A stretch of DNA of 64,000 bases from Candidatus Pacearchaeota archaeon (GTDB lineage: Archaea; Nanobdellota; Nanobdellia; Pacearchaeales; GW2011-AR1), in NCBI GenBank assembly GCA_040879805.1, contig JBBDJP010000001.1, forward strand, positions 66,173 to 130,172. Direction: 5' to 3'. Shown one piece after another: positions 32,329 to 64,000 of this stretch. Each line of letters starts with the position of its first letter. The first letter of the stretch is position 1. The translations under genes were made by a program, and so were the position numbers. The notes beneath the pieces were generated by a model. It saw only the letters and a list, made by a program, of their open reading frames with translations. It did not search any database and was not told where the DNA came from.

Positions 32329-33171
32329 ATGCCTCTGAAAAGACACCATAAGTGGGTGATTGGAAGTTTTAGTTCTTTTGTTGTAGTTGCCCTTATAGTT
32401 CTTGCAATATTGCTAAATGGACTTATTGTTAAACAAAACACCGATTACAACAATTTAAATGATAAAATAGATGAACTTCAATCAAATATACAAAGTCAGA
32501 TAAATTTATTGTCAGAATCTATCTCAGACACTCAAATAGGTCTTGAGGAAAGCCAACAAGAGCTAAGTGTTTTGAAAGCTTCAATAGGAGAAGATTTTTC
32601 AGGAATATATTCTAATTCTGTTGAGTCTGTTGTCATAGTTTCAACAAACACTGGGCAAGGAACAGGATTCATAATTAATGAGAAAGGATACATTGTCACA
32701 AATAACCATGTTTTGAAAGGTGCAACCAGGGCAGGAATTTATGATTCTGAAGGCAATCTTTATGATGTATCTCTAATTGGAAATGATGAGTTCATGGACA
32801 TTGCACTCTTAAAAATTAACGGAAATTTTGAAAAACTAGAATTAGGAGATTCAGATAATGTCAATGTAGGCGAAAAAGTAATTGCAATAGGAAATCCTTA
32901 CGGACTGGTATTTTCCGCAACAGTTGGTTCTGTCTCTTCAGTGCACCGTGAGGGGCCAAATGGAATATTTGCATATACTCAAATTGATGCTGCAGTAAAT
33001 CCCGGTAACTCTGGAGGACCATTAATTAACAATAATGGAGAAGTTATAGGGGTCGTAAATTTTAAAATAAGTGGGGAGGCAGAAGGACTTGGGTTTGCTC
33101 TAGAATCAAATTATGTTAAAGACACAATTAATGAAATCTATAGAAATTATGCAAACGAGACCTTAATTTAA
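32329..33171 (+). CDS. Membrane-anchored trypsin-like (S1C/HtrA-like) serine protease without a PDZ domain.
   Basis: N-terminal TM, then coiled coil. Catalytic triad context TNNHV (His), D, and GNSGGPLIN (Ser). Confidence 0.8.
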   Translation: MPLKRHHKWVIGSFSSFVVVALIVLAILLNGLIVKQNTDYNNLNDKIDELQSNIQSQINLLSESISDTQIGLEESQQELSVLKASIGEDFSGIYSNSVESVVIVSTNTGQGTGFIINEKGYIVTNNHVLKGATRAGIYDSEGNLYDVSLIGNDEFMDIALLKINGNFEKLELGDSDNVNVGEKVIAIGNPYGLVFSATVGSVSSVHREGPNGIFAYTQIDAAVNPGNSGGPLINNNGEVIGVVNFKISGEAEGLGFALESNYVKDTINEIYRNYANETLI

Positions 33172-35076: not shown

Positions 35077-36132
35077 CTATCTCTTAGATGATTTAAGAAT
35101 AGATTCAATATTTTCTTTGAATCTCTCAATATCTTTTGCTTTTATTTGTCCCCCAACAGCATCTTCATGGCCTCCCCCTCTAGCACCTTCAATACCTTCA
35201 ATTGCCTTGACAAGAACATTCCTACACTTTTTTCCCCTCATAGAAATATTCCCTTTAATTCCTTTAACATATATTACTGCTATAATCTTTTTAGGGAAAA
35301 AATAGCTCAACTTGTTCGATAAATCTCCACTCATACTCATATCTCCACCATATTTAAAAAAAATAAATTTTTTATTCTCTCTTCCAATTGAAATTGCCTT
35401 ATCAAAAATTTTCTGAAACTTCAAATCTATCACTTTAAATCTTTCATGCATTGTATGGTTCTTTGTATTTTCTTCAAGAGCGTCATAAGGATTTTTTGCA
35501 TCAATTAAGAATCTTATCATATTCATTACATTAGTTGTTCTATCTTTTAGACCAAATCCAATCATTCTTGCAATTTTTCCAATTTGAGATTTATAAAATA
35601 TATCTAATGGGTCTTTTGATTTAACAACAAGGTCGGGATATTTCTTTTCAAAATTTTCATAGAAATCTGGGACAAACTTATCTGAGATACATCCTGCAAC
35701 CGCAATCCACATATCTTCCTTTCTTCCTGAAATTTGATAACATAATGCAGTAACAGGTTCTTCTTTTTTTGGTTTGTTAAAAATAGGATTATAATAATTG
35801 ACAAAAGAGGGAACTAAGTTTTTATCAATCTCATGATGATCTATCCAAACAATTGGAATGTTGATCTTTTCAGCCTCTTCAAAGAATTTTTCAGAAACAA
35901 CTGGTTTATCTAAAATGAAAATATAGTCTGAATTGAATTCACTTGCTTTTGATAGATAATCTTTAGACAAATCTGGAAAGGATTTAATTGGAACTCCCTT
36001 CCCCCTACCTATATATTTACGAAGTAAAAGGAAAGAACATAAACCGTCTTGATCATTATCAAAAAGAAAAAGGGGGTTTTGAGCCTTACTCAAATGTTCC
36101 TTAATCTCCTGGACTTCTTTTTTTGTGAGCAT
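35077..36132 (-). CDS. DHH-DHHA1 phosphoesterase (NrnA/stand-alone DHH-type).
   Basis: DHH motifs DNDQDG, IDHH. DHHA1 GGGH motif (GGGHEDAVGG) at the C-terminus. Confidence 0.75.
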   Translation of the reverse strand: MLTKKEVQEIKEHLSKAQNPLFLFDNDQDGLCSFLLLRKYIGRGKGVPIKSFPDLSKDYLSKASEFNSDYIFILDKPVVSEKFFEEAEKINIPIVWIDHHEIDKNLVPSFVNYYNPIFNKPKKEEPVTALCYQISGRKEDMWIAVAGCISDKFVPDFYENFEKKYPDLVVKSKDPLDIFYKSQIGKIARMIGFGLKDRTTNVMNMIRFLIDAKNPYDALEENTKNHTMHERFKVIDLKFQKIFDKAISIGRENKKFIFFKYGGDMSMSGDLSNKLSYFFPKKIIAVIYVKGIKGNISMRGKKCRNVLVKAIEGIEGARGGGHEDAVGGQIKAKDIERFKENIESILKSSKR

Positions 36133-36167
36133 TTAATAAAGGATTCAGAGAAGTATTTAAGTTTAAT

Positions 36168-37289
36168 CTAAATTTTCTTTCCCATCAGAATTTTTTCTTT
36201 TAGATTTTTTAGGCTCTTTAAAAGTGAATCAACAAAATTTTCATTCTTAAAAACAGATTTCAAATCTTCTTTATCCAAATTAAAAATATTATCTAATGTT
36301 TTGAATTTTTCTAGAAGAATTTTTATATCTTTTTCAAGTATGTTGGTTTTATTGAGGATTCTCATACCTCTAGGAGAAACAGAACTATCATGGAGCTCGT
36401 CAAAAAGAACTCGCAAAACATTTGAAGTTTCAACAAGAAAATCAAAATTCATATTATTTAAAGTTTCATTTACTTTTAGATGATCTTCACCAAAATAATC
36501 TCTCAAAATTGATTTTCTTTCGTTAGATAAATTTTTAGTAAGTTCCTTTAATCTCATACTCACAATAGTTCCTTCTTTACCTAGTTCAGACAGGTACTCT
36601 TTAACTTTCTCAGATATTCTTCTTATCATTTCAAGAGTTTGAAGAACATTACAAACATCACTCATAGTAGTCAAATTGGTTATTTCAAGTATGTTTAAAT
36701 GTGACGAAAGGTCATTAAAAACTTCTTTCTGTTTCTCCAGAATCTGTAAAGTTTCAGCAGCCCTCCTCAAAATTTCAGAAGTTTCTTCAAGATAATAATT
36801 TTCATCTTTAAAATAAAGGGTTATTTTGTTCTTTCTTTCTGAAACTGCAACTGAAATAGTATCAAATTGTTTAGCTGTCCTCTCCGCTGCCTTGTGCCTT
36901 GTCCCAGTTTCACTAGTCTTTATCTTCATATCTGGTGCCAAAAGCGTGTTCGCATAAAGAATTTTTTTCATATCTTCTGAGATTATTATTGCTCCATCCA
37001 TTTTAGCAAGCTCCACAAGTTTCTGGGAACTAAATTTTGAATTAATTTTAAATCCTCCTTCAACAATATCTAAAAGACCCTCTTTTTTTATAACAATCAA
37101 CGCCCCCATCCTTGCCCTGAGTATATCATCAAGCGCAACTCTTATCGAGGATCCTGGGGAAAAAAACTTTAAGACATCAAAAATATTTTTTTCACGTGAC
37201 ACTTCTGCAGATTCACTTAATTTCTCCTTTGATTTTTGATTTGTATCTTTTTTTCTTAGAACAACTTCTTGACTAGATTTCTTTGTCAT
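36168..37289 (-). CDS. disA: DisA-like diadenylate cyclase (DAC domain, helical linker and C-terminal domain).
   Basis: DAC motifs DGAIII and GTRHKAAERT (RHR-type). Three-domain length of 373 aa. Confidence 0.7.
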   Translation of the reverse strand: MTKKSSQEVVLRKKDTNQKSKEKLSESAEVSREKNIFDVLKFFSPGSSIRVALDDILRARMGALIVIKKEGLLDIVEGGFKINSKFSSQKLVELAKMDGAIIISEDMKKILYANTLLAPDMKIKTSETGTRHKAAERTAKQFDTISVAVSERKNKITLYFKDENYYLEETSEILRRAAETLQILEKQKEVFNDLSSHLNILEITNLTTMSDVCNVLQTLEMIRRISEKVKEYLSELGKEGTIVSMRLKELTKNLSNERKSILRDYFGEDHLKVNETLNNMNFDFLVETSNVLRVLFDELHDSSVSPRGMRILNKTNILEKDIKILLEKFKTLDNIFNLDKEDLKSVFKNENFVDSLLKSLKNLKEKILMGKKI

Positions 37290-41863: not shown

Positions 41864-43630
41864 ATGAAATGGACAAGAAAAAAATTAATTAAATCCTACT
41901 TAGAATTCTTCAAATCTAAAGATCACAAGATTCTCCCTTCATCATCTCTTGTCCCTGAAAACGACCCTACAGTTCTTTTTACAACTGCAGGAATGCATCC
42001 CCTTGTTCCCTATCTTCTTGGACAAAAACATCCTCTTGGAAAAAGATTTGTAAATGTTCAGAAATGTATCCGAACTACAGATATTGAAGAGGTAGGCGAT
42101 GAAACTCACCATACTTTTTTTGAAATGCTTGGAAACTGGTCTTTTGGAGATTATTGGAAAAAGGATGCAATAAAATATACTTTTGAATTTCATACTAAGA
42201 TTCTTGGTATTCCTTTAAGTCATTATGCAATCAGTGTTTTTGAAGGTGATAAAGATGCCTCCCAAGATAAAGAATCTGCAGAAATTTGGGAATCTATTGG
42301 AGTTCCTAAAGAAAGAATAGCATTTCTTTCAAAAAAAGAAAACTGGTGGGGTCCTGCAGGAGAAACCGGACCTTGTGGACCTGACACTGAACAATTCTAT
42401 TGGATTGGAAAGGAAAACCCTCCAAAAAAATTTGTTCCTGAGGACAAAAGATGGATTGAAATCGGGAATGATGTTTTAATGCAATATATTAAAAATAAAT
42501 CGGGAAATTTCAAAGAAGCTAAACAAAAAAATGTTGACTTTGGAGGAGGTGTGGAAAGAACTGTCGCAGTTCTAAATGGACTTAAAGATAATTATCTAGC
42601 GGATATGTGGAAACCAATTATAGAAAAAATTGAACACCTTTCTGGAAAAACTTATGAAAAAAACAAAAGAACAATGAGAGTTATCGCAGATCACACAAAA
42701 GCCGCAGTATTCATAATTGCCGACGGCGTCAAACCAAGTAACACTGGGAGAGGGTATGTTTTGAGAAGGCTTATTAGGAGAGCAATTGTCAATTTGAGAA
42801 AGCTAGGATTTGTAGGAACAGATTTAATAAATCCTATCGCAGAACCAATTTTTGAGCTTTATGACGATTATGGTGAATTGGAAGGAAATAAAAAGAAGAT
42901 CCTTAAGGAAATAGAAAAAGAGGAAAATAAGTTTGAAAAGACTCTTGACAAAGGAATGAAAATCTTCGACAAAGTTGTAAAAGGTAAAACTCTTTCTGGA
43001 AAAGATGCATTCTTACTTTATCAAAGTTATGGATTCCCTATAGAATTAACGAGAGAGATTGCAAAAGACAGAGAAATAGATCTTGATGAAGGAAGTTTTG
43101 AAAAAGAACTTCAAAAACACAAAGATCTTTCAAAAACAGCATCTAAAGGAAAATTTGCTTCTGGACTGGCAGACCATTCTGAAAAAACAACAAGACTTCA
43201 TACCGCAACACATCTTCTTAATGAATCTCTAAGACAAGTTTTGAACAAAAACATAAAACAAAAAGGTTCAAACATAACTCCTGAAAGATTAAGGTTTGAT
43301 TTTGATTTTCCAAGAAAACTTACTAAAGAAGAAATAAAAAAAATTGAAGATCTTGTAAATAAAAAAATCGGTGAGGGCCTTAAAGTTACATCTAAAGAAA
43401 TGTCTCTTGAAAAAGCTCTAGAATCAGGAGCCCAGTCAGAATTTGGAGCTAAGTATCCTAAAAGAGTTTCTGTTTATAGTATTGGAGATTTTAGCAAAGA
43501 AATTTGTACTGGACCACATGTAAAAAATACCAAAGAAATTGGAAAATTTAATATTACAAAAGAACAATCTTCTGCTGCAGGCATTAGAAGAATAAAGGCA
43601 ATTGTTGAGAAATCAAATAAAAAAGATTAA
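41864..43630 (+). CDS. alaS: Alanyl-tRNA synthetase, compact form (catalytic plus editing domains, no C-Ala domain).
   Basis: Catalytic core FTTAGM...QKCIRT...THHTFFEMLGNWSFGDYWK. Editing-domain HTATHLL and CTGPH motifs. Only 588 aa. Confidence 0.85.
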   Translation: MKWTRKKLIKSYLEFFKSKDHKILPSSSLVPENDPTVLFTTAGMHPLVPYLLGQKHPLGKRFVNVQKCIRTTDIEEVGDETHHTFFEMLGNWSFGDYWKKDAIKYTFEFHTKILGIPLSHYAISVFEGDKDASQDKESAEIWESIGVPKERIAFLSKKENWWGPAGETGPCGPDTEQFYWIGKENPPKKFVPEDKRWIEIGNDVLMQYIKNKSGNFKEAKQKNVDFGGGVERTVAVLNGLKDNYLADMWKPIIEKIEHLSGKTYEKNKRTMRVIADHTKAAVFIIADGVKPSNTGRGYVLRRLIRRAIVNLRKLGFVGTDLINPIAEPIFELYDDYGELEGNKKKILKEIEKEENKFEKTLDKGMKIFDKVVKGKTLSGKDAFLLYQSYGFPIELTREIAKDREIDLDEGSFEKELQKHKDLSKTASKGKFASGLADHSEKTTRLHTATHLLNESLRQVLNKNIKQKGSNITPERLRFDFDFPRKLTKEEIKKIEDLVNKKIGEGLKVTSKEMSLEKALESGAQSEFGAKYPKRVSVYSIGDFSKEICTGPHVKNTKEIGKFNITKEQSSAAGIRRIKAIVEKSNKKD

Positions 43631-44742
43631 TTTAATTCATAATCTCCATCAAGACCATATCTTTCTCTTATATTATCATATCTCCAAGACTTTAAAATTC
43701 CTATAAAACTTCTATCACGTATTTGTTTTAGAGTCTGGGCATCTCTATATTCCTTCATGTTTTCAGGAAGAGAAATTCCTTCAGAAATAATCATTACTTC
43801 AGGGACCGATTCAAGTTTAATCCCTCCTATAAACTCCATTTCATGATCAGAAATTATTGAAGGACCTCCAGTCTCAACGAAGCAAAATCCAGTCCCATAT
43901 AAGCTTTCTTTGACAGGACATTTTATTCCTACAGCCTCATGGTTCTCTTCAACAAAATAAAATATTGAAACTCCAAATCCAAGTTCTTTTAATAAAAATG
44001 ATGCAAGCTCAGATTTTTCACCACAAATTCCTTGATTTTCAAACAAAATTTCATAAGGATATCTAGAATAATCTACTTCTTCATCTCCAAAAGAAAAAGT
44101 CTTGTTTGAAGATCCATAAGGAATATTTTGAACTATACTTAATGCTATTCTTGCCTGATCTGTTTTACTGTCTGGAGCAAGATTCTGAATTTTTTTAACT
44201 AAAGGCATAAGCATTGCTCTTTGAACTTCTTCATTTACACTAAGAAGTTTAAAATTCGTCCTAAATGGAATTTCGTCACTTTCATAAACTATCTCTCTTG
44301 TTACGTTTGAGACATATTCATTTACTTCTTCATAAACCGTATAATTGAACCTATGTATTTCCCCTTCTAATAGATATTTTAAAGGTACATCCTTAGAACT
44401 TGTGCCTTGATTGGGAACACAAAAATCTCCATCCTTCTTAAAATTAAAACTTTCAGGACTTTCACAACCACACAGTGAGGCTTTTTCTGTCAAAATTCCT
44501 TCTTCACAGTAAAATGGCTTGTCTAAAGAACAAGTCTCATAAAAAGTTCCGTCTCCACACTTAGAAATTTCTTCACTTTTTGGCTCTAAAGAAGCTAAAT
44601 ATGCTGCAAAAAATGTCAATATCAGGACTAATAGAAATATAATTACAATATAGAAAAATTTATGCCTAAAGATATTCTTTTTTTTCAGAGAATTTTTTTC
44701 AAGGCTATCTTCTTGAAAGGAATCACTTTTTTTCTTTGCCAT
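43627..44742 (-). CDS. Membrane-anchored secreted protein with a transglutaminase-like (Cys protease-like) core.
   Basis: N-terminal TM. QGICGEKSELASFLLKELGFGVSIFY resembles the transglutaminase-like GxCxxxAxxxxxLxRxxGIPAR motif, followed by NHEAVG. Confidence 0.45.
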   Translation of the reverse strand: MAKKKSDSFQEDSLEKNSLKKKNIFRHKFFYIVIIFLLVLILTFFAAYLASLEPKSEEISKCGDGTFYETCSLDKPFYCEEGILTEKASLCGCESPESFNFKKDGDFCVPNQGTSSKDVPLKYLLEGEIHRFNYTVYEEVNEYVSNVTREIVYESDEIPFRTNFKLLSVNEEVQRAMLMPLVKKIQNLAPDSKTDQARIALSIVQNIPYGSSNKTFSFGDEEVDYSRYPYEILFENQGICGEKSELASFLLKELGFGVSIFYFVEENHEAVGIKCPVKESLYGTGFCFVETGGPSIISDHEMEFIGGIKLESVPEVMIISEGISLPENMKEYRDAQTLKQIRDRSFIGILKSWRYDNIRERYGLDGDYELN

Positions 44743-49684: not shown

Positions 49685-51355
49685 CTACTTATTATCTTTT
49701 TTATTTGTACCAACAAGACTCTTAATTGTCTTTTTGGATTTTCTCATTCTTCTAACTATGAAAAATAGAACTCCTAAAATAAGTACAACTGCAATTAGAA
49801 TATATGCTTCTCCTGCCCCTATTCCTTCAAAAACTGCGAATCCTATAGGGGCTCCAATAGTTATTGGTTCTACTACAGAGCTAGAATAAACTTCAGAGTT
49901 ATATAGGATAGATAATAATAGGGTCCCATTTAAAGACTCATTTATTCCTAAATTTGTCCTAAACTCCTCAGTTCCATTTGCATTAATACTTTTATTCTCA
50001 GAAATACTGGAGAACTCTGTTCCTTCTTCATCAGAAAGGGTAAAACTAATTTCAACTTCTTGATCTTCTCCTGTAAGTTCAGAAAGAGAATATAAAATTC
50101 TCACCCTATCTTGCCTTGTCCTCTGTGCATCAATAAGTTCAAAATCTATCTTTTTTTCCTCGACAGTCAAAACAAAAGTCTCTGAAACTGATGTAGAAGA
50201 ACAATCTACAGAAACTTGGATAGAATAATCACTTTCCTCAGTTTCATTAGGTATTTCAATATCAAAATTAAAATTAACTTCTTCATCAGGATTTATGTTC
50301 CTTTGTTCCCCTTCAAAAGATATCCAATCAGAATTCTCCCCCGAAGTGGAAAACTCGCATGAAAATAAAAATCCCTCTCCATCGTTTATAACTTTCCATG
50401 ACATCTGGGTGGAATCTCCAGGATTGAGTTTTACGTTATCTATCTTTGATGCAGAAAGAGATGCCAAGTTAGAAAAATCTTCTTGGGTTCCTTGAGTATC
50501 TTGAGAACTTTGAGTTTCTCCTACTTCCTCTTCTGTTCCTGTTTCATTTGTTTCTTCTTCAACTTCTTCATACTCACAACTTCCATCATCCTCTGTTGCA
50601 TTCTCATCATAATTTATTGCATCAGAATCTGTACATCCCGGAATGCTATCCTCCTCACCATAAGATAATTCAATCGAAGATATTGAAGGGCTCAACTCAA
50701 AGTCTGATGTTTCAAATATGACCTTGTACTGGAAATACTGTCCTGTAAGGTTCAAATTGTTTACATCCGAAACAGTTTCAAAACTTGAGTTTGTGAAGTT
50801 TGCATCCTCAGATGCTCTTACTTGAAAAGATAGTGAAGAGTTGATTTCCATATCATATTCATAGCTTATTAAAACATCGTTCCAGGAAAAATTACTTGCA
50901 TTTGTCAGTGTTCCTGTTGATGAATTCAATGAAGCATTTCCAACATTAATAGAGTTATTGTTTTCTGAATCATACAATGAGGTCAATGATAAATCAGTCC
51001 AGAAAGAGCTAAAATTCGCCAAAGTATAACCTGTAGAATTGACCCATCCACTCTCATTTATCACATTTATCGTTTTTGAATTTGGAACATTTCCTTCCCA
51101 CGTTAGGTTGTTCCATAAAACAGATTCATTAGATTCAAAAACCTCTGAAGTATAAGAACCTGAAAGATTCTCTCCAGTTAAAGAAATATTCCCATTATCA
51201 AAAGAAGTATTTTCATAAACCCCTTGACTAAAATTAGATTGTACTTCAGAAACTGCGAATCCTGTTATTCCTACATTAAGAATATATGCAACAGCCAAAA
51301 CACCTAAAATTAAGAAACCTATTGAAAGATAATTTCCTGCCTCTTTTTTTGCCAT
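49685..51355 (-). CDS. Cell-surface glycoprotein candidate (S-layer-like): N-terminal signal/TM, Asn/Ser/Thr-rich ectodomain, C-terminal TM anchor with a basic tail.
   Basis: About 25 N-x-S/T sequons counted by eye, an acidic TNETGTEEEVGETQSSQD linker, Cys pairs, and a C-terminal hydrophobic helix plus RRMRKSKK. Confidence 0.5.
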   Translation of the reverse strand: MAKKEAGNYLSIGFLILGVLAVAYILNVGITGFAVSEVQSNFSQGVYENTSFDNGNISLTGENLSGSYTSEVFESNESVLWNNLTWEGNVPNSKTINVINESGWVNSTGYTLANFSSFWTDLSLTSLYDSENNNSINVGNASLNSSTGTLTNASNFSWNDVLISYEYDMEINSSLSFQVRASEDANFTNSSFETVSDVNNLNLTGQYFQYKVIFETSDFELSPSISSIELSYGEEDSIPGCTDSDAINYDENATEDDGSCEYEEVEEETNETGTEEEVGETQSSQDTQGTQEDFSNLASLSASKIDNVKLNPGDSTQMSWKVINDGEGFLFSCEFSTSGENSDWISFEGEQRNINPDEEVNFNFDIEIPNETEESDYSIQVSVDCSSTSVSETFVLTVEEKKIDFELIDAQRTRQDRVRILYSLSELTGEDQEVEISFTLSDEEGTEFSSISENKSINANGTEEFRTNLGINESLNGTLLLSILYNSEVYSSSVVEPITIGAPIGFAVFEGIGAGEAYILIAVVLILGVLFFIVRRMRKSKKTIKSLVGTNKKDNK

Positions 51356-56219: not shown

Positions 56220-59200
56220 TTAATTTAGTTCTTCTTCATAAGCAACTATGTTTGAAACATACTGAAGAACAGAAGAGGGAATATTTTCACATCTCTTCCA
56301 CTCTTCTAATTCACAAGCATTCTGAATATTTCCCCTCCCCCAATTATAAGCTGCAAGAGAAATCTTTTTAGAATCTTCAAAAGAATTCCCTCTCCCTAAA
56401 TAATATTCTTGTAACATATCAAAATATATTGTTCCAACATAAATATTCTTCCTTGGCTTAAGAATGTCCCTTTCAAAATCATTTATATTCACACTTAAAA
56501 TAATTAAAGAAGAATTATCATACCTTGCTTTCACATCTGTTGTTGCAACTTTTGTAACTTGCATAAGGCCATATGAACCTCCTGCACTTTCTACTGCTCC
56601 AGGATCTGCATAAGATTCCTGGATAATTATGGCCTTAATCAAATTTTCCTCAATACCATATTCCTGAGATACTTCCCTTATAAGACCTTCATAAGTTCCT
56701 AAATTATCAAAAAGATCTGGATCATTCATCCTACTCTCTACTTGATTTGGTTCCGGAAGTATTGGTCCTCCAGATATATTGTTATCTTCCCTAGAAATAA
56801 AATTCCCTCGTGGAAAACCTTTTTCAGTATCTAATGAAAAAATAATTGCTGCACCTTCTAAAAAATCATCAATATTTTCTAGGTTTTGAATTAATTCGGA
56901 ATTTATGTCTGTAGGCTCTCTTCCTTCAAATTTTCCAGAATTGACTTCAATTGTGTCTGTTCTCATCCAATTATTCCTATCTGGAGACCATTGCCACCCT
57001 TCTTGACTACTAAATCTAAAATAAAGATTTGTTTCTCCAATATTAATTAATGACCCTAAGCTAAATCCATCTCCTAAGACTGTAAACTCTACAGGAATAA
57101 AATTTTGTCCTTTTTCACCTATTTTCTTTAAAGTTACTTTCTCAGTAGACAACTCTGAATCTAAAAAGATATAATTTTCTTCATTCAACCAAGCACGATA
57201 AATTAATAATTCTAATCCTTCCAAGTACCCAACCTCTAAAAGAAGAGATGTCCAATACTTGTTCTCTAGATTCATATTCTCTGAAGGGAGGGGAGTTCCA
57301 TCAGGCATTGTTGCAACAAACGTCGCGTCTGAATCTATGGTTTCAAAATTTATATCAATTTCCTGATAAAAACTCTCTTCAGAAAAATTAGGTAAAGATC
57401 TATCTGTGTTTTCAAAATCAGATTCAAAAATTCCTACATTAAACCATTCTCCACCTTCTTCCGGAAGATCCCCCTCCATAGACCAATACCATCCATTTTC
57501 TATGAATGTATAATATATATTTTCTCCTGTAATTCTCCTATCTCTAAATTCAAAGATAGGATAATCCCTTTCTATATTCTGAAGCTCATTTCTTGATGCC
57601 GGACCTGAAAAATTATCTCTAAAATCTAATACATCCTCTTCATCATCTTCTCCTTCTTCTATTTGCTGTTCTCTCAAACTTTGAAGAACTCCTTTCACCA
57701 AATCTTTGTAAGCGTTTCCTCTGGATAAAATAAGGAATCCTTTTTCATAACTAAGGAAAACTCTTTCTATATTTTTATTTATTATCTCAATTCTCTCTAG
57801 AGGGTTCTCGTTTTGTCTTTCTCTTTGATTAATTTCTCTTGCAAGTTCCCTAAACTCAGAAGCACTAAGAGAATCTGTCTCATTTCTCAAGATTTCTAAA
57901 TAATCTTCAATTACATCTCCTACAACTTGATCTTCAATTCCTGTATGCCTTATTATATCTCTTGAACTTTCAGTATCAAGCCAACAACCAATTTGAGAGT
58001 TTCCACAATGTCCTACTCTTACCCATCTTGCATTTTCTGTTCCTGCTCTTGAATCTGTAGAAGATCCAGGGTCATCAGTAGAACAAATTCTTATAATTCC
58101 CCTATTTTGAAGCCCAGGATCAATAAAATTTTCTGCACCAGACTGTAGGCTTGGATTTAAAAAACTTCTAAGATTGGGCGTCCCTGAAACACATTCTGAT
58201 TCTGAATTAATGTCTGTATTTGAAACTTGATCTGCAATATACTCATCATTAAGATAATTTACAGCAAAATCTGTTGATACTCTTCCAAATCCACACTCTT
58301 CTTGATTGTTAACAACAATACACATCTCATTAAATCCTGAAGGTGCTGTAAATGTACATGGTTGATTTGGATTATCACCACAATTAGCAGTCTCTCCTAC
58401 TGGAACAAATCCTGAAGCAACTATCCTTCTTGAAGATGTGTCTTGGAAAAATGCTCCTCCTGTACTCCTCAAATAAACTTGGTAATAAGCAGGAATATCC
58501 TCTCCCGCATAAATATTGAAAAATACTTTATACTGAGATGTTGGAGGTACCGTTGCTGTTGAAAATTCCATTTCATCAAATCTTCCATGGAACTGTGGAG
58601 GAACTCTCGGACTAGTCAAAGAATCAAGAAGGCTACCTCCATCTGGTCCTGCAATTGAAACCCAATTTCTACAAATCTCTGTACCTACACCTTCTATAGA
58701 TCTTGCTTGGAATGCATCTGCCGAATTAACAGCATATTCCTGAATAAAGAACTCTGCCGAATCTGCTGCATTCTGCCAAGCTTGCCTTGCATTGAGATAT
58801 TCTCCTCCTCCCCTAGTTGGCTTTTGTCCTAAAATCTCTCCAAGAACAGAAGGAATGACTGCATTGGCAAGAGGAAGGCCTTGTCTCCAAACAAAATCAC
58901 ACATATAAATTGAATGTAATTGATCACATATTCCTATCTGTTGACCTGTTTCAAGACTGTGTTCAAGACAACTCTGATAATCTTCTAAAATATTTGCATA
59001 CCCTTGACTTGCAGCATAAACTCCTGAAACACATATTGGAATCTTTACCTCCGGGAAATTAGGTGCACAAAGAGCAAGACTTCCTGCAATTCCAGACTGA
59101 ACAACATCTGAAACAGGATACTTTCCTCCTAAATCACAACGAGAGCTAGGACAAACAAAAGGATCACAAATATTAAACATTAAATTACAATCTCTTGCAG

Positions 59201-62200
59201 ACATGAAATCTTGACATTGAATTTCAGGGATTCCTACTGAGGGTTCACCTACAGATATGGTTCTTCCAAAAAGACTAATCTCTCTCAATCCAGACTCATG
59301 CCTTCTTGAAGCCTCTGCAATTGCCTCAACAGCTCTACTAGCTAATTGAGAAGCTTCATTCTCACTTAAACCAGGAAATTGGTTATAAGGTTGATTTGTG
59401 GAAGGATTCAGTCCAACACAGTCATCATCACCAACTCCTAAGAAAAACTCTTCTCTCCCATTACTACCAACATTACAAAGGTAGAAACTAGAGACTCTTC
59501 CGGAATCATCATATGCCTTCAAAGAACCTCCTATTGGAAGATTAGATTTCATAGCAGCATACCATCCATCTCCAAGTCCTGAAGGTGCAGGAAAAGGAAC
59601 AATTGCAGGCAAACCTGCATATTGGCCCGACTCATAATATCTCAATTCACAATTTGGACATTCATTTTCATAATAATTTCTATCTCGGAACTCAAACATA
59701 AATCTCTCTTGAATTTCACTCTTAATTTCCCCTTCCTCAATTTTATTACCTGACGTATGATAAACCTCTAAAACTCTATACCTGCCTCTTCCAGTATCTT
59801 CTAATTGAACAATGTATTCTTCACCCCCATACACAAGAGTTTGAGCTGGAACTCCTGAAGGAATATCTACTAATTTTCCTGCTGTCTTACCTCCTCCATA
59901 AACATCTATGATAGATTCTCCTCTTGTGTGAACACTAACATCAAGTCCTTTTAACGCTTCAGAAAGATTATTTTTAAGATTGGTCTCTACTTCAGACTTT
60001 TTTGTGTTTAAATGAATATCTGTAAGATAAGATTTAATCTCACTTTCCGCAACAGACCTAATAACAGGATCATCAGAATTCAAAAGTCGTGCATTCAATT
60101 GCAAGTCTCTTGCTTGAGAAACATAAGTAGTCTCTGAATTTATGCCTTGAATTATTTCTTGTGCTTCCACGATATTTCCATTCACATCTATCTCAAAATT
60201 TTCAAGATTTTGATTCAACTCATTTCGATAAGACTCACTAGTAAGTCTCTTTAAAAATTCTTCATCATTTACTATGTCTTCACCAAGGAAACGGGAGGTA
60301 GTGATCCCTTCCCTAAGATTTTTCATCTCCTTATTATGTTCTTCAATTATATTTGAAACTTCTTTTACAGAATCTTCTATATTCTTATTATTCTCAAGGA
60401 AACAAGAATCAAGGTTTCTATATTCTCCAGAATTTACCATCCCCTCACATCTTTCTGTCCATCCGCCATCTCCACGCATAATCTTTTGCCTAGCAATTCC
60501 TTCTCCATGTAAATTTGAAATAAAACTTTTCAAAACAAGTCCTGCACCAACACCTAAACAAGCCTTGTTTCCGATATCCACTGTTGTCTTAAGCCCTTCA
60601 TTGATCCTTCTCCAGGTTTCGAGAGTCTCCTCTAAAGAGTTTATTCTCTCTTCAGTTTTTTCTGGAGAAAGCATGAGAAAATCATTTCTTTTTTCAATCC
60701 CAATCCTAAATGGAAATTCTGCTTGAGTTTCTTGATAATCTACATTCGGAATAATTGAAACACGTGCAACTTTTCTCAAATTAATATTATCAACAGAAAT
60801 TCTATAATTATTTTCTCCTACAACTTCAAAAGAATTTAGATTTATCCTTTGAGTGTTTCCAATAGTCGTGACTTGACTTCCTCTATCTATTCCTCTTATA
60901 TTAAAAATAGCATTATTATCATTTAATTCTTGTAGACTAATAAATTCAGACTCTGAAAGATAAATTGTCTGATCTTTTCTTATTCCTGTTTTTCTTCCAC
61001 TGTAATTTCCTGCATTGCTAACAGTTATATCTACACTATAATCTTCTAGTGAAGGCTCACTAATTCTGTCTAAAGATATACTATATGTTTTTCCTTTAAT
61101 TAAGACTGTCTGGGCAGATGTTGTTTGACTTGAAAGTTTTTCTTGTTGACTACAAATATCAGGCATTCCTCTTCCTGAGTTAGGATATGCATCTTCAAAT
61201 TCTTCGCACAATTCAACAACAGTTCTCATTTGACTTGCAGCAGAATGAATCTCTATTAAATTCCTCAATGCACTTTCACCAAAAACAGGTTCTGTTCCAG
61301 AGGGATAACTTTCACCAGAAAAACTTTGTAAAACATCTTCATAATCTCTTACTGCATTTTCATAATCTCTTCTGTGCTCTTCACTTAAACCCGAAAGCCC
61401 AGAGTCCACAGCATCTGCAAAACCTATGATTTTAAACTTATTTGAGTAAGCATCTTCATTTCCTACGATTTCATTAAACTGGGTAAGAGCTCCGCTTGGA
61501 GAAGGAAACATTTCAAAACTGCCGTCCGCCTTGACAAGTCCTGCAGGAGCATCTCCAGCTACCATCCAGTTAACAAAACTTCCAACAAATCCAAAACCTA
61601 AAGAAACAATTCTTTCCAAAGAATCTACAATAACATTTCCCGACTCAAATTCAACAACATTCATAATACTGGGTAAGCTCCTATAAACAGCTCTTTGCTT
61701 AAATTCTTCTGAAGTTTTGGCAGTACTCACAACTGGAACAAAAAACAACTCTTCTCCATCATCTTCTCCAATGTAACCTACATAGACATATTTTCCTGTT
61801 TCAGCGCCTTCTGAATCACGCCGAGAATACAATTGATCACCAACTCCTACTATAGATGATTCCCCATCTATTTCTATTTTTATATTTGGGCTAACTCTAA
61901 GATTTAATCTATTACTCCCTTCATCAACATTACAATCAACTTGAACTTCTTCAACAATTCCTTCTTTATTTATGCTTCTAACTTGACAATCATTATTAAG
62001 AAATTTGGCGCCTTCCCTTAAATCAAAAGCATCTCCATTGACTTCAATCGTTGCAGTTGTATCAGGATTTTCAACTCCATCCAGCCTTATTTCCATGGTC
62101 CCAACACAATAATCAAAACCAGGCATTGGAATTTCTCTTGATTTTTCCCCCACTAGGAGGTTTTCAGTTGTAACTTTTCTGTTTGCTGTTCTTGCCTGAG

Positions 62201-62948
62201 AATTTGTTTCTCTGTCAGAATAAATCGAAATTGAAGCACGATCATCACTAACACTTTCTGCCCTCAAATATCCTCTTCCTTGCCAAAACCCGTATCCTTT
62301 AAAATTTCTATCCCATTCTGTATCAGACATTACAGGAAGGTAAAATTGGGACCTTCCAACCCCAAATGCGTTCTGAACATCATATCTAATTCTTGCTGTC
62401 AAATTTCCTTCTACAAAATCAGGCATTTCAGATTCATTCCTTTGTTGTCTTAAAACAATAACAGCGTAACCAAGATTATCCAAAACTGGAGGATTATCTA
62501 GACCAATCTGCCCTCCAAATCTATTAAGGGCCGCTCTAGCAGAATGAAATCCAACTCCTGAAACTTCTCTAGGAAAATCTCCTGAAAAAGTAATTCTATC
62601 TATAGATCCTATATCAATTAAGGGATTTATTTGCGTACCAACAACAGGGCAAATGACTGGAACATTCTGATTCTCTAGAAGGTCGCTCCTAACTACTGAT
62701 GGTGAACATCCAATAGGAGAAATCTGAAGAATAAAATCTTGTCCTTCATGACACATCTGCCTGCTAAATGAAGGAGAAAATAGGGCATCATTTACAATAT
62801 TAGATTGTGAATTCTGGACGTAATTCCTTGAATAAGACGAAGACAGAAACTGTGCAGAAACAAAAAATGTGAGTAATATTAAAGACATGAAAACAAACCC
62901 AACTAAGAAAATCTTTTTCACACTTATATTTTTATTTTTGTATTTCAT
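56220..62948 (-). CDS. Giant (2242-aa) secreted/cell-surface protein with a C-terminal lytic transglycosylase (SLT, lysozyme-like) domain and a central Cys-rich region.
   Basis: N-terminal signal/TM (FLVGFVFMSLILLTFFVSAQF). C-terminal IIQESYADPGAVESAGGSYGLMQV...AYNWG matches the family-1 lytic transglycosylase motif (ES...AGAxGLMQ...AYNxG). Long G/S/N/D/E-rich, K-poor body. Several Cys clusters. Confidence 0.6.
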   Translation of the reverse strand: MKYKNKNISVKKIFLVGFVFMSLILLTFFVSAQFLSSSYSRNYVQNSQSNIVNDALFSPSFSRQMCHEGQDFILQISPIGCSPSVVRSDLLENQNVPVICPVVGTQINPLIDIGSIDRITFSGDFPREVSGVGFHSARAALNRFGGQIGLDNPPVLDNLGYAVIVLRQQRNESEMPDFVEGNLTARIRYDVQNAFGVGRSQFYLPVMSDTEWDRNFKGYGFWQGRGYLRAESVSDDRASISIYSDRETNSQARTANRKVTTENLLVGEKSREIPMPGFDYCVGTMEIRLDGVENPDTTATIEVNGDAFDLREGAKFLNNDCQVRSINKEGIVEEVQVDCNVDEGSNRLNLRVSPNIKIEIDGESSIVGVGDQLYSRRDSEGAETGKYVYVGYIGEDDGEELFFVPVVSTAKTSEEFKQRAVYRSLPSIMNVVEFESGNVIVDSLERIVSLGFGFVGSFVNWMVAGDAPAGLVKADGSFEMFPSPSGALTQFNEIVGNEDAYSNKFKIIGFADAVDSGLSGLSEEHRRDYENAVRDYEDVLQSFSGESYPSGTEPVFGESALRNLIEIHSAASQMRTVVELCEEFEDAYPNSGRGMPDICSQQEKLSSQTTSAQTVLIKGKTYSISLDRISEPSLEDYSVDITVSNAGNYSGRKTGIRKDQTIYLSESEFISLQELNDNNAIFNIRGIDRGSQVTTIGNTQRINLNSFEVVGENNYRISVDNINLRKVARVSIIPNVDYQETQAEFPFRIGIEKRNDFLMLSPEKTEERINSLEETLETWRRINEGLKTTVDIGNKACLGVGAGLVLKSFISNLHGEGIARQKIMRGDGGWTERCEGMVNSGEYRNLDSCFLENNKNIEDSVKEVSNIIEEHNKEMKNLREGITTSRFLGEDIVNDEEFLKRLTSESYRNELNQNLENFEIDVNGNIVEAQEIIQGINSETTYVSQARDLQLNARLLNSDDPVIRSVAESEIKSYLTDIHLNTKKSEVETNLKNNLSEALKGLDVSVHTRGESIIDVYGGGKTAGKLVDIPSGVPAQTLVYGGEEYIVQLEDTGRGRYRVLEVYHTSGNKIEEGEIKSEIQERFMFEFRDRNYYENECPNCELRYYESGQYAGLPAIVPFPAPSGLGDGWYAAMKSNLPIGGSLKAYDDSGRVSSFYLCNVGSNGREEFFLGVGDDDCVGLNPSTNQPYNQFPGLSENEASQLASRAVEAIAEASRRHESGLREISLFGRTISVGEPSVGIPEIQCQDFMSARDCNLMFNICDPFVCPSSRCDLGGKYPVSDVVQSGIAGSLALCAPNFPEVKIPICVSGVYAASQGYANILEDYQSCLEHSLETGQQIGICDQLHSIYMCDFVWRQGLPLANAVIPSVLGEILGQKPTRGGGEYLNARQAWQNAADSAEFFIQEYAVNSADAFQARSIEGVGTEICRNWVSIAGPDGGSLLDSLTSPRVPPQFHGRFDEMEFSTATVPPTSQYKVFFNIYAGEDIPAYYQVYLRSTGGAFFQDTSSRRIVASGFVPVGETANCGDNPNQPCTFTAPSGFNEMCIVVNNQEECGFGRVSTDFAVNYLNDEYIADQVSNTDINSESECVSGTPNLRSFLNPSLQSGAENFIDPGLQNRGIIRICSTDDPGSSTDSRAGTENARWVRVGHCGNSQIGCWLDTESSRDIIRHTGIEDQVVGDVIEDYLEILRNETDSLSASEFRELAREINQRERQNENPLERIEIINKNIERVFLSYEKGFLILSRGNAYKDLVKGVLQSLREQQIEEGEDDEEDVLDFRDNFSGPASRNELQNIERDYPIFEFRDRRITGENIYYTFIENGWYWSMEGDLPEEGGEWFNVGIFESDFENTDRSLPNFSEESFYQEIDINFETIDSDATFVATMPDGTPLPSENMNLENKYWTSLLLEVGYLEGLELLIYRAWLNEENYIFLDSELSTEKVTLKKIGEKGQNFIPVEFTVLGDGFSLGSLINIGETNLYFRFSSQEGWQWSPDRNNWMRTDTIEVNSGKFEGREPTDINSELIQNLENIDDFLEGAAIIFSLDTEKGFPRGNFISREDNNISGGPILPEPNQVESRMNDPDLFDNLGTYEGLIREVSQEYGIEENLIKAIIIQESYADPGAVESAGGSYGLMQVTKVATTDVKARYDNSSLIILSVNINDFERDILKPRKNIYVGTIYFDMLQEYYLGRGNSFEDSKKISLAAYNWGRGNIQNACELEEWKRCENIPSSVLQYVSNIVAYEEELN
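56223..56700 (-). other. SLT (lytic transglycosylase) catalytic domain within the giant protein (C-terminal ~150 aa).
   Basis: Catalytic Glu in QESYADP. Glycine-rich substrate-binding AGGSYGLMQV. AYNWGRGN motif. Confidence 0.6.
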
Positions 62949-62949
62949 T

Positions 62950-64000
62950 TTATCTAAAATTTATTTTAAGTTCGCTTGTTTCGACAAGGATATTATTTAT
63001 CTGAACTTCTTCAAGACTCGAAGGAATTGAAAAACTTTCTGCATCTATTTCAATTATTCCTCTTAAAAGTTCACTTTCCAATATAAAATAATCTTGTTGG
63101 CCTCCTCCAGATATGGCCTGAGTTATTGACTGTTCAGGAACTTCTATTTCAAAACACTTTTCTTCTTGTAGTCCAATAATTCCTAATAATCCTGGCCTTA
63201 GAATGGTTGTACATTGTTCTGCCACAGTTTCGGAGAAGAAAATCTCAGAATCTTCATAGACATAAACTTGAATATCATATTGACCTTCTGCCAATGAAAC
63301 TGTATCTTGATCAGGATAAACAACTGATCTTGAAATATCTTCCGAAGTGAAGTGGATTATCGCATTCCCATTATAAACTTCCCCATCAAGCGAAAGAATT
63401 ATTGGAATTTCATAAGTTTTATCCATAACAATTGTCAAACTACCTTGAGAAACTGTAGAAAATAATACACTTTCTTCTTTGAACCCTTCTGCACGCGCAG
63501 TAATAAATCCATTAGCACATTGAGGAAAACTATCTAAAAGAACTCCTGATTCTGTGGTTCCAATATTACACCTTTCGCCAAAACACTCTGAAGAAATAAA
63601 AGCATCAATAGGATTTCCATCTCTGTCTCTTACATTGACCTCAACTTGGGAATTTTTATATTGGCAAATTTCAGGTGATGTCTGAGAAAATGCACTCGCA
63701 TCAAGAGATTCTCTGGGATTATTTTTTTCAATGACTATTGCAAGAGGAAATTGAAAAAATTCTTCTCCTTCATATACTTGCACAAGAACAGGATACTTCA
63801 TGGAATAGACAAAATGGTAAGGAGTATAACAAAAACCCAACACTCCTAGACCTGGTTGATTTCCAAGAGGGTTTGCTATCATAAAATTCCCTTCTGAAGG
63901 AGTTACTTCAAAGCTATGTGGCCAATCTTTAGAATTAAGAAACCTTACTTCTTCACGTCCTGAAAAATCAACAATAAAATAATCATGAACACTTTGTTCA
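62950..64000 (-). CDS. Secreted or extracellular hypothetical protein, 5'-truncated by the window edge. Immediately upstream of, and co-oriented with, the giant SLT gene.
   Basis: The reading frame stays open from 63882 to the window end at 64000, so the true start is beyond the window. Its stop abuts the giant gene ATG (1-nt spacer). Cys-containing, K-poor composition like the giant protein. Confidence 0.4.
   Translation of the reverse strand, partial: EQSVHDYFIVDFSGREEVRFLNSKDWPHSFEVTPSEGNFMIANPLGNQPGLGVLGFCYTPYHFVYSMKYPVLVQVYEGEEFFQFPLAIVIEKNNPRESLDASAFSQTSPEICQYKNSQVEVNVRDRDGNPIDAFISSECFGERCNIGTTESGVLLDSFPQCANGFITARAEGFKEESVLFSTVSQGSLTIVMDKTYEIPIILSLDGEVYNGNAIIHFTSEDISRSVVYPDQDTVSLAEGQYDIQVYVYEDSEIFFSETVAEQCTTILRPGLLGIIGLQEEKCFEIEVPEQSITQAISGGGQQDYFILESELLRGIIEIDAESFSIPSSLEEVQINNILVETSELKINFR

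Follow-up and report, generated by a model that had tools for sequence, protein, structure and literature searches.

A giant secreted protein of Pacearchaeota with a conserved body and exchangeable, putatively peptidoglycan-cleaving tails

The giant gene, its partner and their operon

We analysed a 64,000-nucleotide stretch of DNA (the window) from contig JBBDJP010000001.1 of a Candidatus Pacearchaeota archaeon, near one end of which lies a gene for a very large protein, hereafter the giant. Its open reading frame (ORF), at 56220-62948 on the minus strand, encodes 2,242 amino acids (aa) plus the stop codon, and the product is identical to GenBank MEX0920783.1, named by NCBI a transglycosylase SLT domain-containing protein, from a 175,703-bp contig of a Candidatus Pacearchaeota metagenome-assembled genome (MAG). 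A first-pass annotation of the same DNA, made by a model from the letters and their ORFs, had described a 2,242-aa protein with an N-terminal signal anchor and a disulfide-rich centre; the size and the Cys-rich region agree with our findings (36 Cys, of which 17 lie within aa 1245-1655), but the anchor probably does not. The first 32 aa (62853-62948, minus strand) comprise MKYKNKNISVKK, a hydrophobic core and the ending V-S-A|Q; aa ~8-32 form the only strongly hydrophobic segment of the giant, and the sole one of transmembrane grade, and the consensus of the homologues has SA just before the mature part. By the -3/-1 rule and this consensus, aa 1-32 are probably not an anchor but a Sec signal peptide that is cleaved off. 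Hydrophobicity along the 2,242 aa gave no C-terminal anchor.

The other end of the protein carries an SLT domain of the GH23 family-1 lytic transglycosylases (Pfam PF01464) at aa 2089-2218 (56295-56684, minus strand), with an E-value of 4.9e-17 and a score of 62 bits against a gathering cut-off of 21.3. In a phmmer comparison aa 2083-2211 align to E. coli MltC (4c5f, E 1.7e-8), and E2111-S2112 of the motif IIIQES align with the Glu of MltC MQTES; the codon of this predicted catalytic Glu, for which the translation was checked, lies at 56616-56618 on the minus strand. The MltC position aligned with E2111 is a Gln in a second deposited sequence (4cfo/4cfp/4chx), whose entries we take to be those of a catalytic mutant. 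The motifs QES, GLMQV and AYNWG are all present, and the C-terminus is predicted to adopt the lysozyme-like alpha-helical SLT fold. The earlier assignment to family 1 thereby held, the domain score, the predicted fold and the catalytic Glu on which it had been made to depend all being there, and the giant would end in a competent-looking murein-cleaving tip. Over aa 1-2088 Pfam returned no match, and in particular no protease, nuclease or glycosyltransferase modules.

Directly upstream on the same strand, its stop codon separated from the giant gene by a 1-nt spacer, lies a second gene, the partner (MEX0920784.1), whose C-terminal 350 aa of 616 occupy 62950-64000 (minus strand), with the frame open to the window edge, as expected from the first reading of a Cys-containing upstream gene running beyond the window. 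The extension past 64000 that had been advised was provided by a Logan contig (L085), which matches 4,216 bp of the window without a single difference, adds 3,457 bp beyond and yields the full 616-aa partner and an upstream 67-aa protein; the operon order is the 67-aa protein, with two hydrophobic helices, then the partner, then the giant. Across 84 related loci, the partner is found directly upstream and on the same strand in all of the ~65 that include upstream DNA, and the small upstream ORF is detectable in about half of the related loci.

For the partner, neither Pfam and PHROG nor the PDB sequences gave a match. Its N-terminus, compared across 119 homologues, consists of a short basic leader followed by G (106) or A (10) | Q (119) V T (119) I F (119) I I I A (118), and the resulting motif K-[KR]-G|Q-V-T-I-F-I-I-I-A is nearly invariant, with Pfam Class_IIIsignal (PF04021) falling in register but at an E-value of only 6.1. 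A membrane helix so nearly invariant is reminiscent of a class III (prepilin-type) signal peptide, and we take a prepilin-like partner as a lead. The 30 window ORFs scanned with Pfam included neither a pilus ATPase nor an A24 peptidase, and a motif scan of the window found no other prepilin-like N-termini. The idea that partner and giant share domains was dropped, as hhalign found none.

Directly upstream of the operon, positions 1-2546 of L085 hold genes for a regulator of the ArsR type and a secreted protein of 192 aa, together with those for a CPHC protein that is membrane-anchored and has a thioredoxin fold, a homologue of VKOR and a small Thioredoxin_3 protein. A disulfide-forming set thus stands beside two Cys-rich exported proteins. 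This VKOR/thioredoxin set was rejected as a part of the system, since it adjoins the operon in this genome only and in none of the other 84 loci.

A conserved body with exchangeable tails

In BLAST comparisons with 119 of 119 relatives, coverage of the giant is complete over aa ~50-1750, drops to ~40% over aa 1750-2050 and to ~10% over the SLT domain; a body of ~1,720 aa is more conserved than the giant's own catalytic domain. This body, aa 33-1756 (57681-62852, minus strand), is present in all homologues and comprises conserved blocks at aa 60-375, 500-660, 710-1000 and 1090-1756, the last of which (57681-59681, minus strand) is the most conserved, with 63% mean column identity and 17 Cys that are invariant across 11 diverse homologues. 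The body matches no Pfam family and no PDB sequence by phmmer, and profile searches of PDB sequences were empty as well.

AlphaFold models of the giant, built from 41-row alignments, reached a predicted local distance difference test score (pLDDT) of 72 and a predicted TM-score (pTM) of 0.54 for aa 34-1010, and 66 and 0.36 for aa 1085-2242. Beta-rich domains appear in them at aa 60-375 and at aa 580-720, with long helices over aa 730-1000 and additional beta domains. The most conserved stretch, a Cys-rich core at aa 1243-1447 (58608-59222, minus strand), is predicted to be helical at a pLDDT of only 30-50, and two of the mature giant's most hydrophobic segments lie in it; its low pLDDT may come from the shallow alignment (41 sequences), from an oligomer interface or from a membrane-interacting element. 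Two hydrophobic patches, both below transmembrane grade, lie elsewhere in the body: one at aa 778-800 (60548-60616, minus strand), with a conserved Gly-rich stretch, ACLGVGAGLVLKSF, around aa 795-810, and one at aa ~440-465 (61553-61630, minus strand) in a variable region.

A body more conserved than the enzyme it carries, and a membrane partner strictly co-inherited and translationally coupled with it, are not obviously needed by a free secreted bacteriolytic or scavenging enzyme, which would lyse living bacteria or digest wall debris for amino sugars and amino acids with neither attachment nor tethering; releasing a 250-kDa protein would, furthermore, presumably be costly for an ultrasmall cell. 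We regard this explanation as unlikely, in spite of the signal peptide and the lack of an anchor in the giant itself, which speak for it, as do the suggestion of scavenging by Pacearchaeota in a 2024 ISME J paper (PMC11537232) and the report, in the relevant passages of a 2025 PLoS Biology paper, that secreted haloarchaeal peptidoglycan hydrolases kill bacteria (PMC12352652).

The tail varies after aa ~1750, where BLAST coverage breaks. In a census of 207 members with 1,800 aa or more, SLT-type tails were found in 111 (54%) and a second commonest type, class C, in 54 (26%); DUF1615 occurred in 12, Amidase_3 in three, M23 and the pretoxin-HINT domain PT-HINT in two each, and Amidase_2, VanY and DUF2272 in one each, while 26 members had no recognised tail. 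An optional, non-catalytic module with two W-x-W-S-type repeats (T1; aa 1785-2045 in the giant, 56814-57596, minus strand) is present in 107 of the census members. The Pfam architectures seen in chosen relatives include SLT with DUF1615 and Amidase_3, VanY, an M23 insertion with SLT, Amidase_2, DUF2272, and a pretoxin-HINT tail followed by ~300 residues with no assigned domain. Many tails that are blank in Pfam hold a Cys-rich domain with the motifs ES, GVMQIN and YNGW, which iterated searches from the SLT domain of the giant overlap and which is therefore probably a divergent SLT-type domain. Class C tails, on the other hand, have no Pfam, PDB or profile match; the Cys and His residues conserved in them, which follow the pattern C..S.EFVY ... 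SSHAVIF ... DWIGG, allow us to guess at a papain-fold hydrolase. A placement of class C as NlpC/P60- or DUF2272-like was tried and rejected, with Pfam, PDB and hhalign all non-significant.

Bodies that are 72-77% identical bear different tail classes, and the tail class differs in 57 of 141 nearest-neighbour pairs. Such differences among close bodies indicate that the C-terminus acts as an exchangeable cassette and that SLT does not define the family; annotation based on SLT overlooks roughly half of it.

Spread and inheritance of the family

A search of 5.8 billion proteins gave more than 500 relatives, nearly all of 1,900-3,700 aa and from MAGs of Pacearchaeota, Woesearchaeota or Nanoarchaeota. 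With a profile of aa 1090-1756 against 1.84 billion representatives, 1,113 clusters (at 50% identity) were found at E<=1e-3 and 970 at E<=1e-30, and among the full-length matches listed this block sits at ~aa 1000-1950 of proteins of 1,700-3,800 aa. A pattern scan found a relative encoded in 371 GTDB species-representative genomes. The best 80 related loci come, again, nearly all from MAGs of the same three groups, and one related locus (L025) belongs to a single-cell genome, SCGC AAA011-D5. Two contigs that carry the giant gene are labelled as bacterial, DATKUW010000047.1 as 'Bacillota bacterium' and JBAZBJ010000019.1 as 'Parcubacteria group bacterium'; on both, the gene stands beside an archaeal TFB (90-93% identical to that of the window), S8e and LSm, and the contigs are evidently misbinned archaeal ones.

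The contig under study is archaeal. The window encodes TFB, S8e, LSm, an MCM with an archaeal winged helix, GatD/GatE, deoxyhypusine synthase and TFE-alpha, and further an ATP-dependent DNA ligase and FtsZ; a bacterial source, in which SLT proteins would be ordinary and which the first-pass annotation had kept in view, does not apply. Downstream of the giant the stop codon (56220) is followed by 182 bp of intergenic DNA and then by TFB on the opposite strand, and in 59 of the 84 related loci the downstream genes are TFB, S8e, LSm and an RNase Z-like gene, with UbiA or RNase Z-like genes in the downstream position of relatives. There is no immunity-type gene directly downstream of the giant, and none of the 2.9 million IMG/VR contigs holds a relative. 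This synteny, together with the empty IMG/VR search, points to a vertically inherited chromosomal feature rather than a mobile element.

The same observations bear on whether the giant might be a viral or mobile protein, such as a tape-measure protein or tail lysin, a VirB1-like conjugation hydrolase or a classical polymorphic toxin cassette. We consider this highly improbable: PHROG matches of the giant are confined to the SLT domain, with none to the body, the body has no structural match in BFVD at E<=0.001, the flanks are housekeeping genes in conserved order, G+C content at third codon positions (GC3) is native and the downstream immunity-type gene is missing. Viral origin was rejected on the lack of an IMG/VR relative.

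Base composition has to be read in the same light. The locus had been judged by eye to be GC-richer than its surroundings, at 38-40%, and horizontal acquisition had been offered as one reason. The giant (35.3%) and the partner (34.1%) are indeed richer in GC than the other 58 window ORFs (31.3%, standard deviation 2.8), but the estimate was too high, 38% being reached in one 2-kb bin only, at 58-60 kb. GC3 is not raised (0.194 in the giant, 0.222 in the other ORFs) and the excess is in codon positions 1 and 2, which means that it reflects amino-acid composition and not foreign origin. The protein is poor in Lys (3.0%, against a window mean of 12.5%) and rich in Gly, Ser, Asn and Asp (30.6% together, against 23.8%), which bears out the composition first reported for it, and it is Lys-poor and acidic like the other surface protein of the window, encoded at 49685-51355. 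With typical GC3 and an operon kept beside TFB, S8e, LSm and RNase Z in the majority of related loci, acquisition by recent horizontal transfer was rejected.

A possible role against bacterial cell walls

A Pfam scan of 30 window ORFs, not including the smaller ones, turned up no peptidoglycan-synthesis genes, in agreement with what had been seen at first. Pseudomurein has beta-1,3-linked N-acetyltalosaminuronic acid and L-amino acids only; MurNAc glycosidic bonds, MurNAc-L-Ala amides and D-Ala-containing peptides are features of bacterial murein and not of pseudomurein. The tips of the homologues (SLT, MurNAc-L-Ala amidases, the D-Ala-D-Ala carboxypeptidase VanY, M23) act on these murein features, and bacteria are therefore the most likely target, a pseudomurein wall being unlikely. 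Of the host-directed role first suggested, against a bacterial or pseudomurein-containing wall, the bacterial version is thus the most sensible reading, whereas the pseudomurein alternative fits poorly with murein-specific tail enzymes.

The specificity of the tails for bacterial murein also speaks against the giant being a component of the archaeon's own envelope or surface layer, with a hydrolase tail that would be accessory or act on the cell's own glycan layer. Rapid tail exchange would be unexpected in the upkeep of one's own envelope, no murein genes were seen, and the protein at 49685-51355 provides a separate surface-glycoprotein candidate with its own C-terminal anchor. We hold such a function to be quite improbable, although a widespread family in a conserved position beside housekeeping genes, a strongly conserved, disulfide-rich body and the VKOR/thioredoxin set just upstream in this genome would all be compatible with it.

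We hypothesise that the giant is a vertically inherited surface device that presents an exchangeable peptidoglycan hydrolase to bacterial cells, a proposal to which we give a probability of roughly 0.55. The giant would be exported via Sec. Since it lacks an anchor and its gene is coupled to that of the partner, it would then be kept at the cell surface via the partner. The body of ~1,720 aa would then present the C-terminal hydrolase to a bacterium, here an SLT transglycosylase with E2111 as its predicted catalytic residue, and local murein cleavage could let the archaeon bind, breach or lyse that bacterium. Swapping of tips between lineages presumably matches different bacterial walls or reflects an arms race. 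The domain architecture, the SLT fold with its catalytic residue, the conservation of operon and synteny, the modular tails and the lack of a viral or mobile setting are what the data show; surface tethering, the bacterial target and the outcome, be it attachment, predation or scavenging, are what we infer.

Several points weigh against this hypothesis. The 26 census members with no recognised catalytic tail are joined by ~14 further ones with T1 only, and the hydrolase nature of class C, a quarter of the census (26%), is a guess from a Cys...His pattern. The lack of murein-synthesis genes covers part of one genome and is not genome-wide. The prepilin reading of the partner rests on its motif, with Class_IIIsignal at E 6.1 and no pilus genes seen in the window. 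Finally, among known adhesins, pores and injection devices there is no match to the body.

A bolder version of the hypothesis is that the operon is a lineage-defining host-contact machine with a new fold, in which a prepilin-like partner tethers the giant and the body, including the conserved, hydrophobic Cys-rich core, penetrates the bacterial envelope behind an exchangeable hydrolase tip. We think this doubtful as it stands. If true, the type of tip would reflect the walls of the bacteria on which each archaeon lives, and the operon would represent, in archaea, an equivalent of phage tail tips and polymorphic toxins, and a first molecular handle on bacteria-dwelling archaea.

Pacearchaeota and Woesearchaeota are abundant, uncultured, ultrasmall archaea with unknown hosts, and a murein-specific surface protein is the strongest genomic hint, already published, of archaea that live or prey on bacteria. 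Body and partner are candidates for an attachment apparatus and possible targets for antibodies or tomography, and enzyme tips assayed on defined sacculi could indicate host wall types.

Relation to known proteins and systems

Both the family and its interpretation in terms of bacterial walls are already known. According to the relevant passages of Castelle et al. 2021 (PMC8204110), fam00969 is a family specific to Pacearchaeota and Woesearchaeota, whose large extracellular members reach 3,000 aa, contain a lytic transglycosylase domain and were proposed to attach to the walls of bacterial hosts; the same passages cite earlier notes on such proteins (Rinke 2013, Castelle 2015). Vigneron et al. 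2022 (PMC9723730) mention, in a related passage, a 'large lytic murein transglycosylase' in Woesearchaeota, and the bacterial-wall idea is restated in corresponding parts of that paper and of the ISME J paper (PMC11537232). Peptidoglycan hydrolase genes are described as many in Nanoarchaeota in the pertinent section of PMC12352652, a count that includes only proteins with known wall-binding domains. With 2,242 aa, an SLT domain, a signal peptide and a Pacearchaeota source, the giant fits fam00969, membership being judged by description: lineage, size class (2,000-3,000 aa), predicted extracellular location, SLT domain and a proposed role in the binding or breakdown of bacterial walls are shared with what those passages give. 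The difference is that fam00969 is defined there by its SLT domain, with no SLT-independent body, interchangeable tails or fixed partners described in them; tail modularity, the SLT-independent body, the partner genes and the conserved synteny were likewise not found in the related passages of this literature. The statement that this architecture is not a named system is literally right, but the family had been published (PMC8204110, PMC9723730); save for its GC estimate and the suggested transfer, the first-pass annotation had described the giant correctly in outline.

Compared with bacterial family-1 lytic transglycosylases (E. coli MltC, MltE and Slt70; VirB1; EtgA), the giant has an archaeal producer with no murein genes in view, and its SLT domain makes up the last 9% of 2,242 aa, the remainder being unrelated to these enzymes. 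It is also unlike a phage tape-measure protein or tail lysin, given its housekeeping flanks and a body with no relative in PHROG, BFVD or IMG/VR.

In layout there is a parallel with bacterial polymorphic toxins such as the Rhs, CDI and MAF systems, on which Zhang, Aravind and colleagues have written. As in these toxins, an N-terminal export signal and a long conserved body are followed by a sharp junction and a variable C-terminal enzymatic domain, and a pretoxin-HINT domain is found in the two census relatives mentioned above. The giant differs in that it has no Rhs/YD, haemagglutinin or other known repeats and no pretoxin domain of its own, in that the tips of its family are wall hydrolases and not nucleases or deaminases, and in that its locus is one conserved gene of the chromosome instead of a variable island, with no immunity gene downstream, a gene for which a producer free of murein would have no need.

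A resemblance to the giant host-interaction proteins of DPANN and candidate phyla radiation (CPR) genomes had also been proposed. The SPEARE proteins of Nanohaloarchaeota are giant host-interaction proteins. Some Archaeovorins of Omnitrophota carry an SLT domain (bioRxiv 10.1101/2023.11.21.568195). Like the giant, SPEARE proteins and Archaeovorins are very large secreted proteins of host-dependent or predatory lineages, and the resemblance holds in size and secretion; it does not extend to the domains, of which SLT is the only one in common, and the giant is ten-fold smaller than Archaeovorins. A 2026 preprint on giant proteins of Nanobdellota makes no mention of murein or transglycosylase, and the preprint on giant genes of Omnitrophota does not name DPANN, Pacearchaeota or Woesearchaeota.

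Other genes in the window

Four further loci deserve mention. The surface protein encoded at 49685-51355 (minus strand) has 556 aa and is Lys-poor. It combines a signal peptide and dozens of N-x-S/T sequons with an acidic linker and, at the C-terminus, a transmembrane helix followed by a basic tail; Pfam gives no match for it, and it resembles an S-layer or major surface glycoprotein. At 32329-33171 (plus strand) lies a gene for a Lys-poor (4.3%), probably exported trypsin-like serine protease, and a similar gene is found near the giant in a related locus (L001). The gene at 43627-44742 (minus strand) encodes a Cys-rich, membrane-anchored protein of 371 aa for which Pfam gives no match and in which the pattern GICGEKS ... 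HEAVG reminded us of transglutaminase- or papain-like enzymes. Finally, at 35077-37289 (minus strand) a gene for a DisA-type diadenylate cyclase adjoins one for a DHH/DHHA1 phosphoesterase, and the two would be a pair for the synthesis and breakdown of cyclic di-AMP (c-di-AMP) in a very small archaeal genome.

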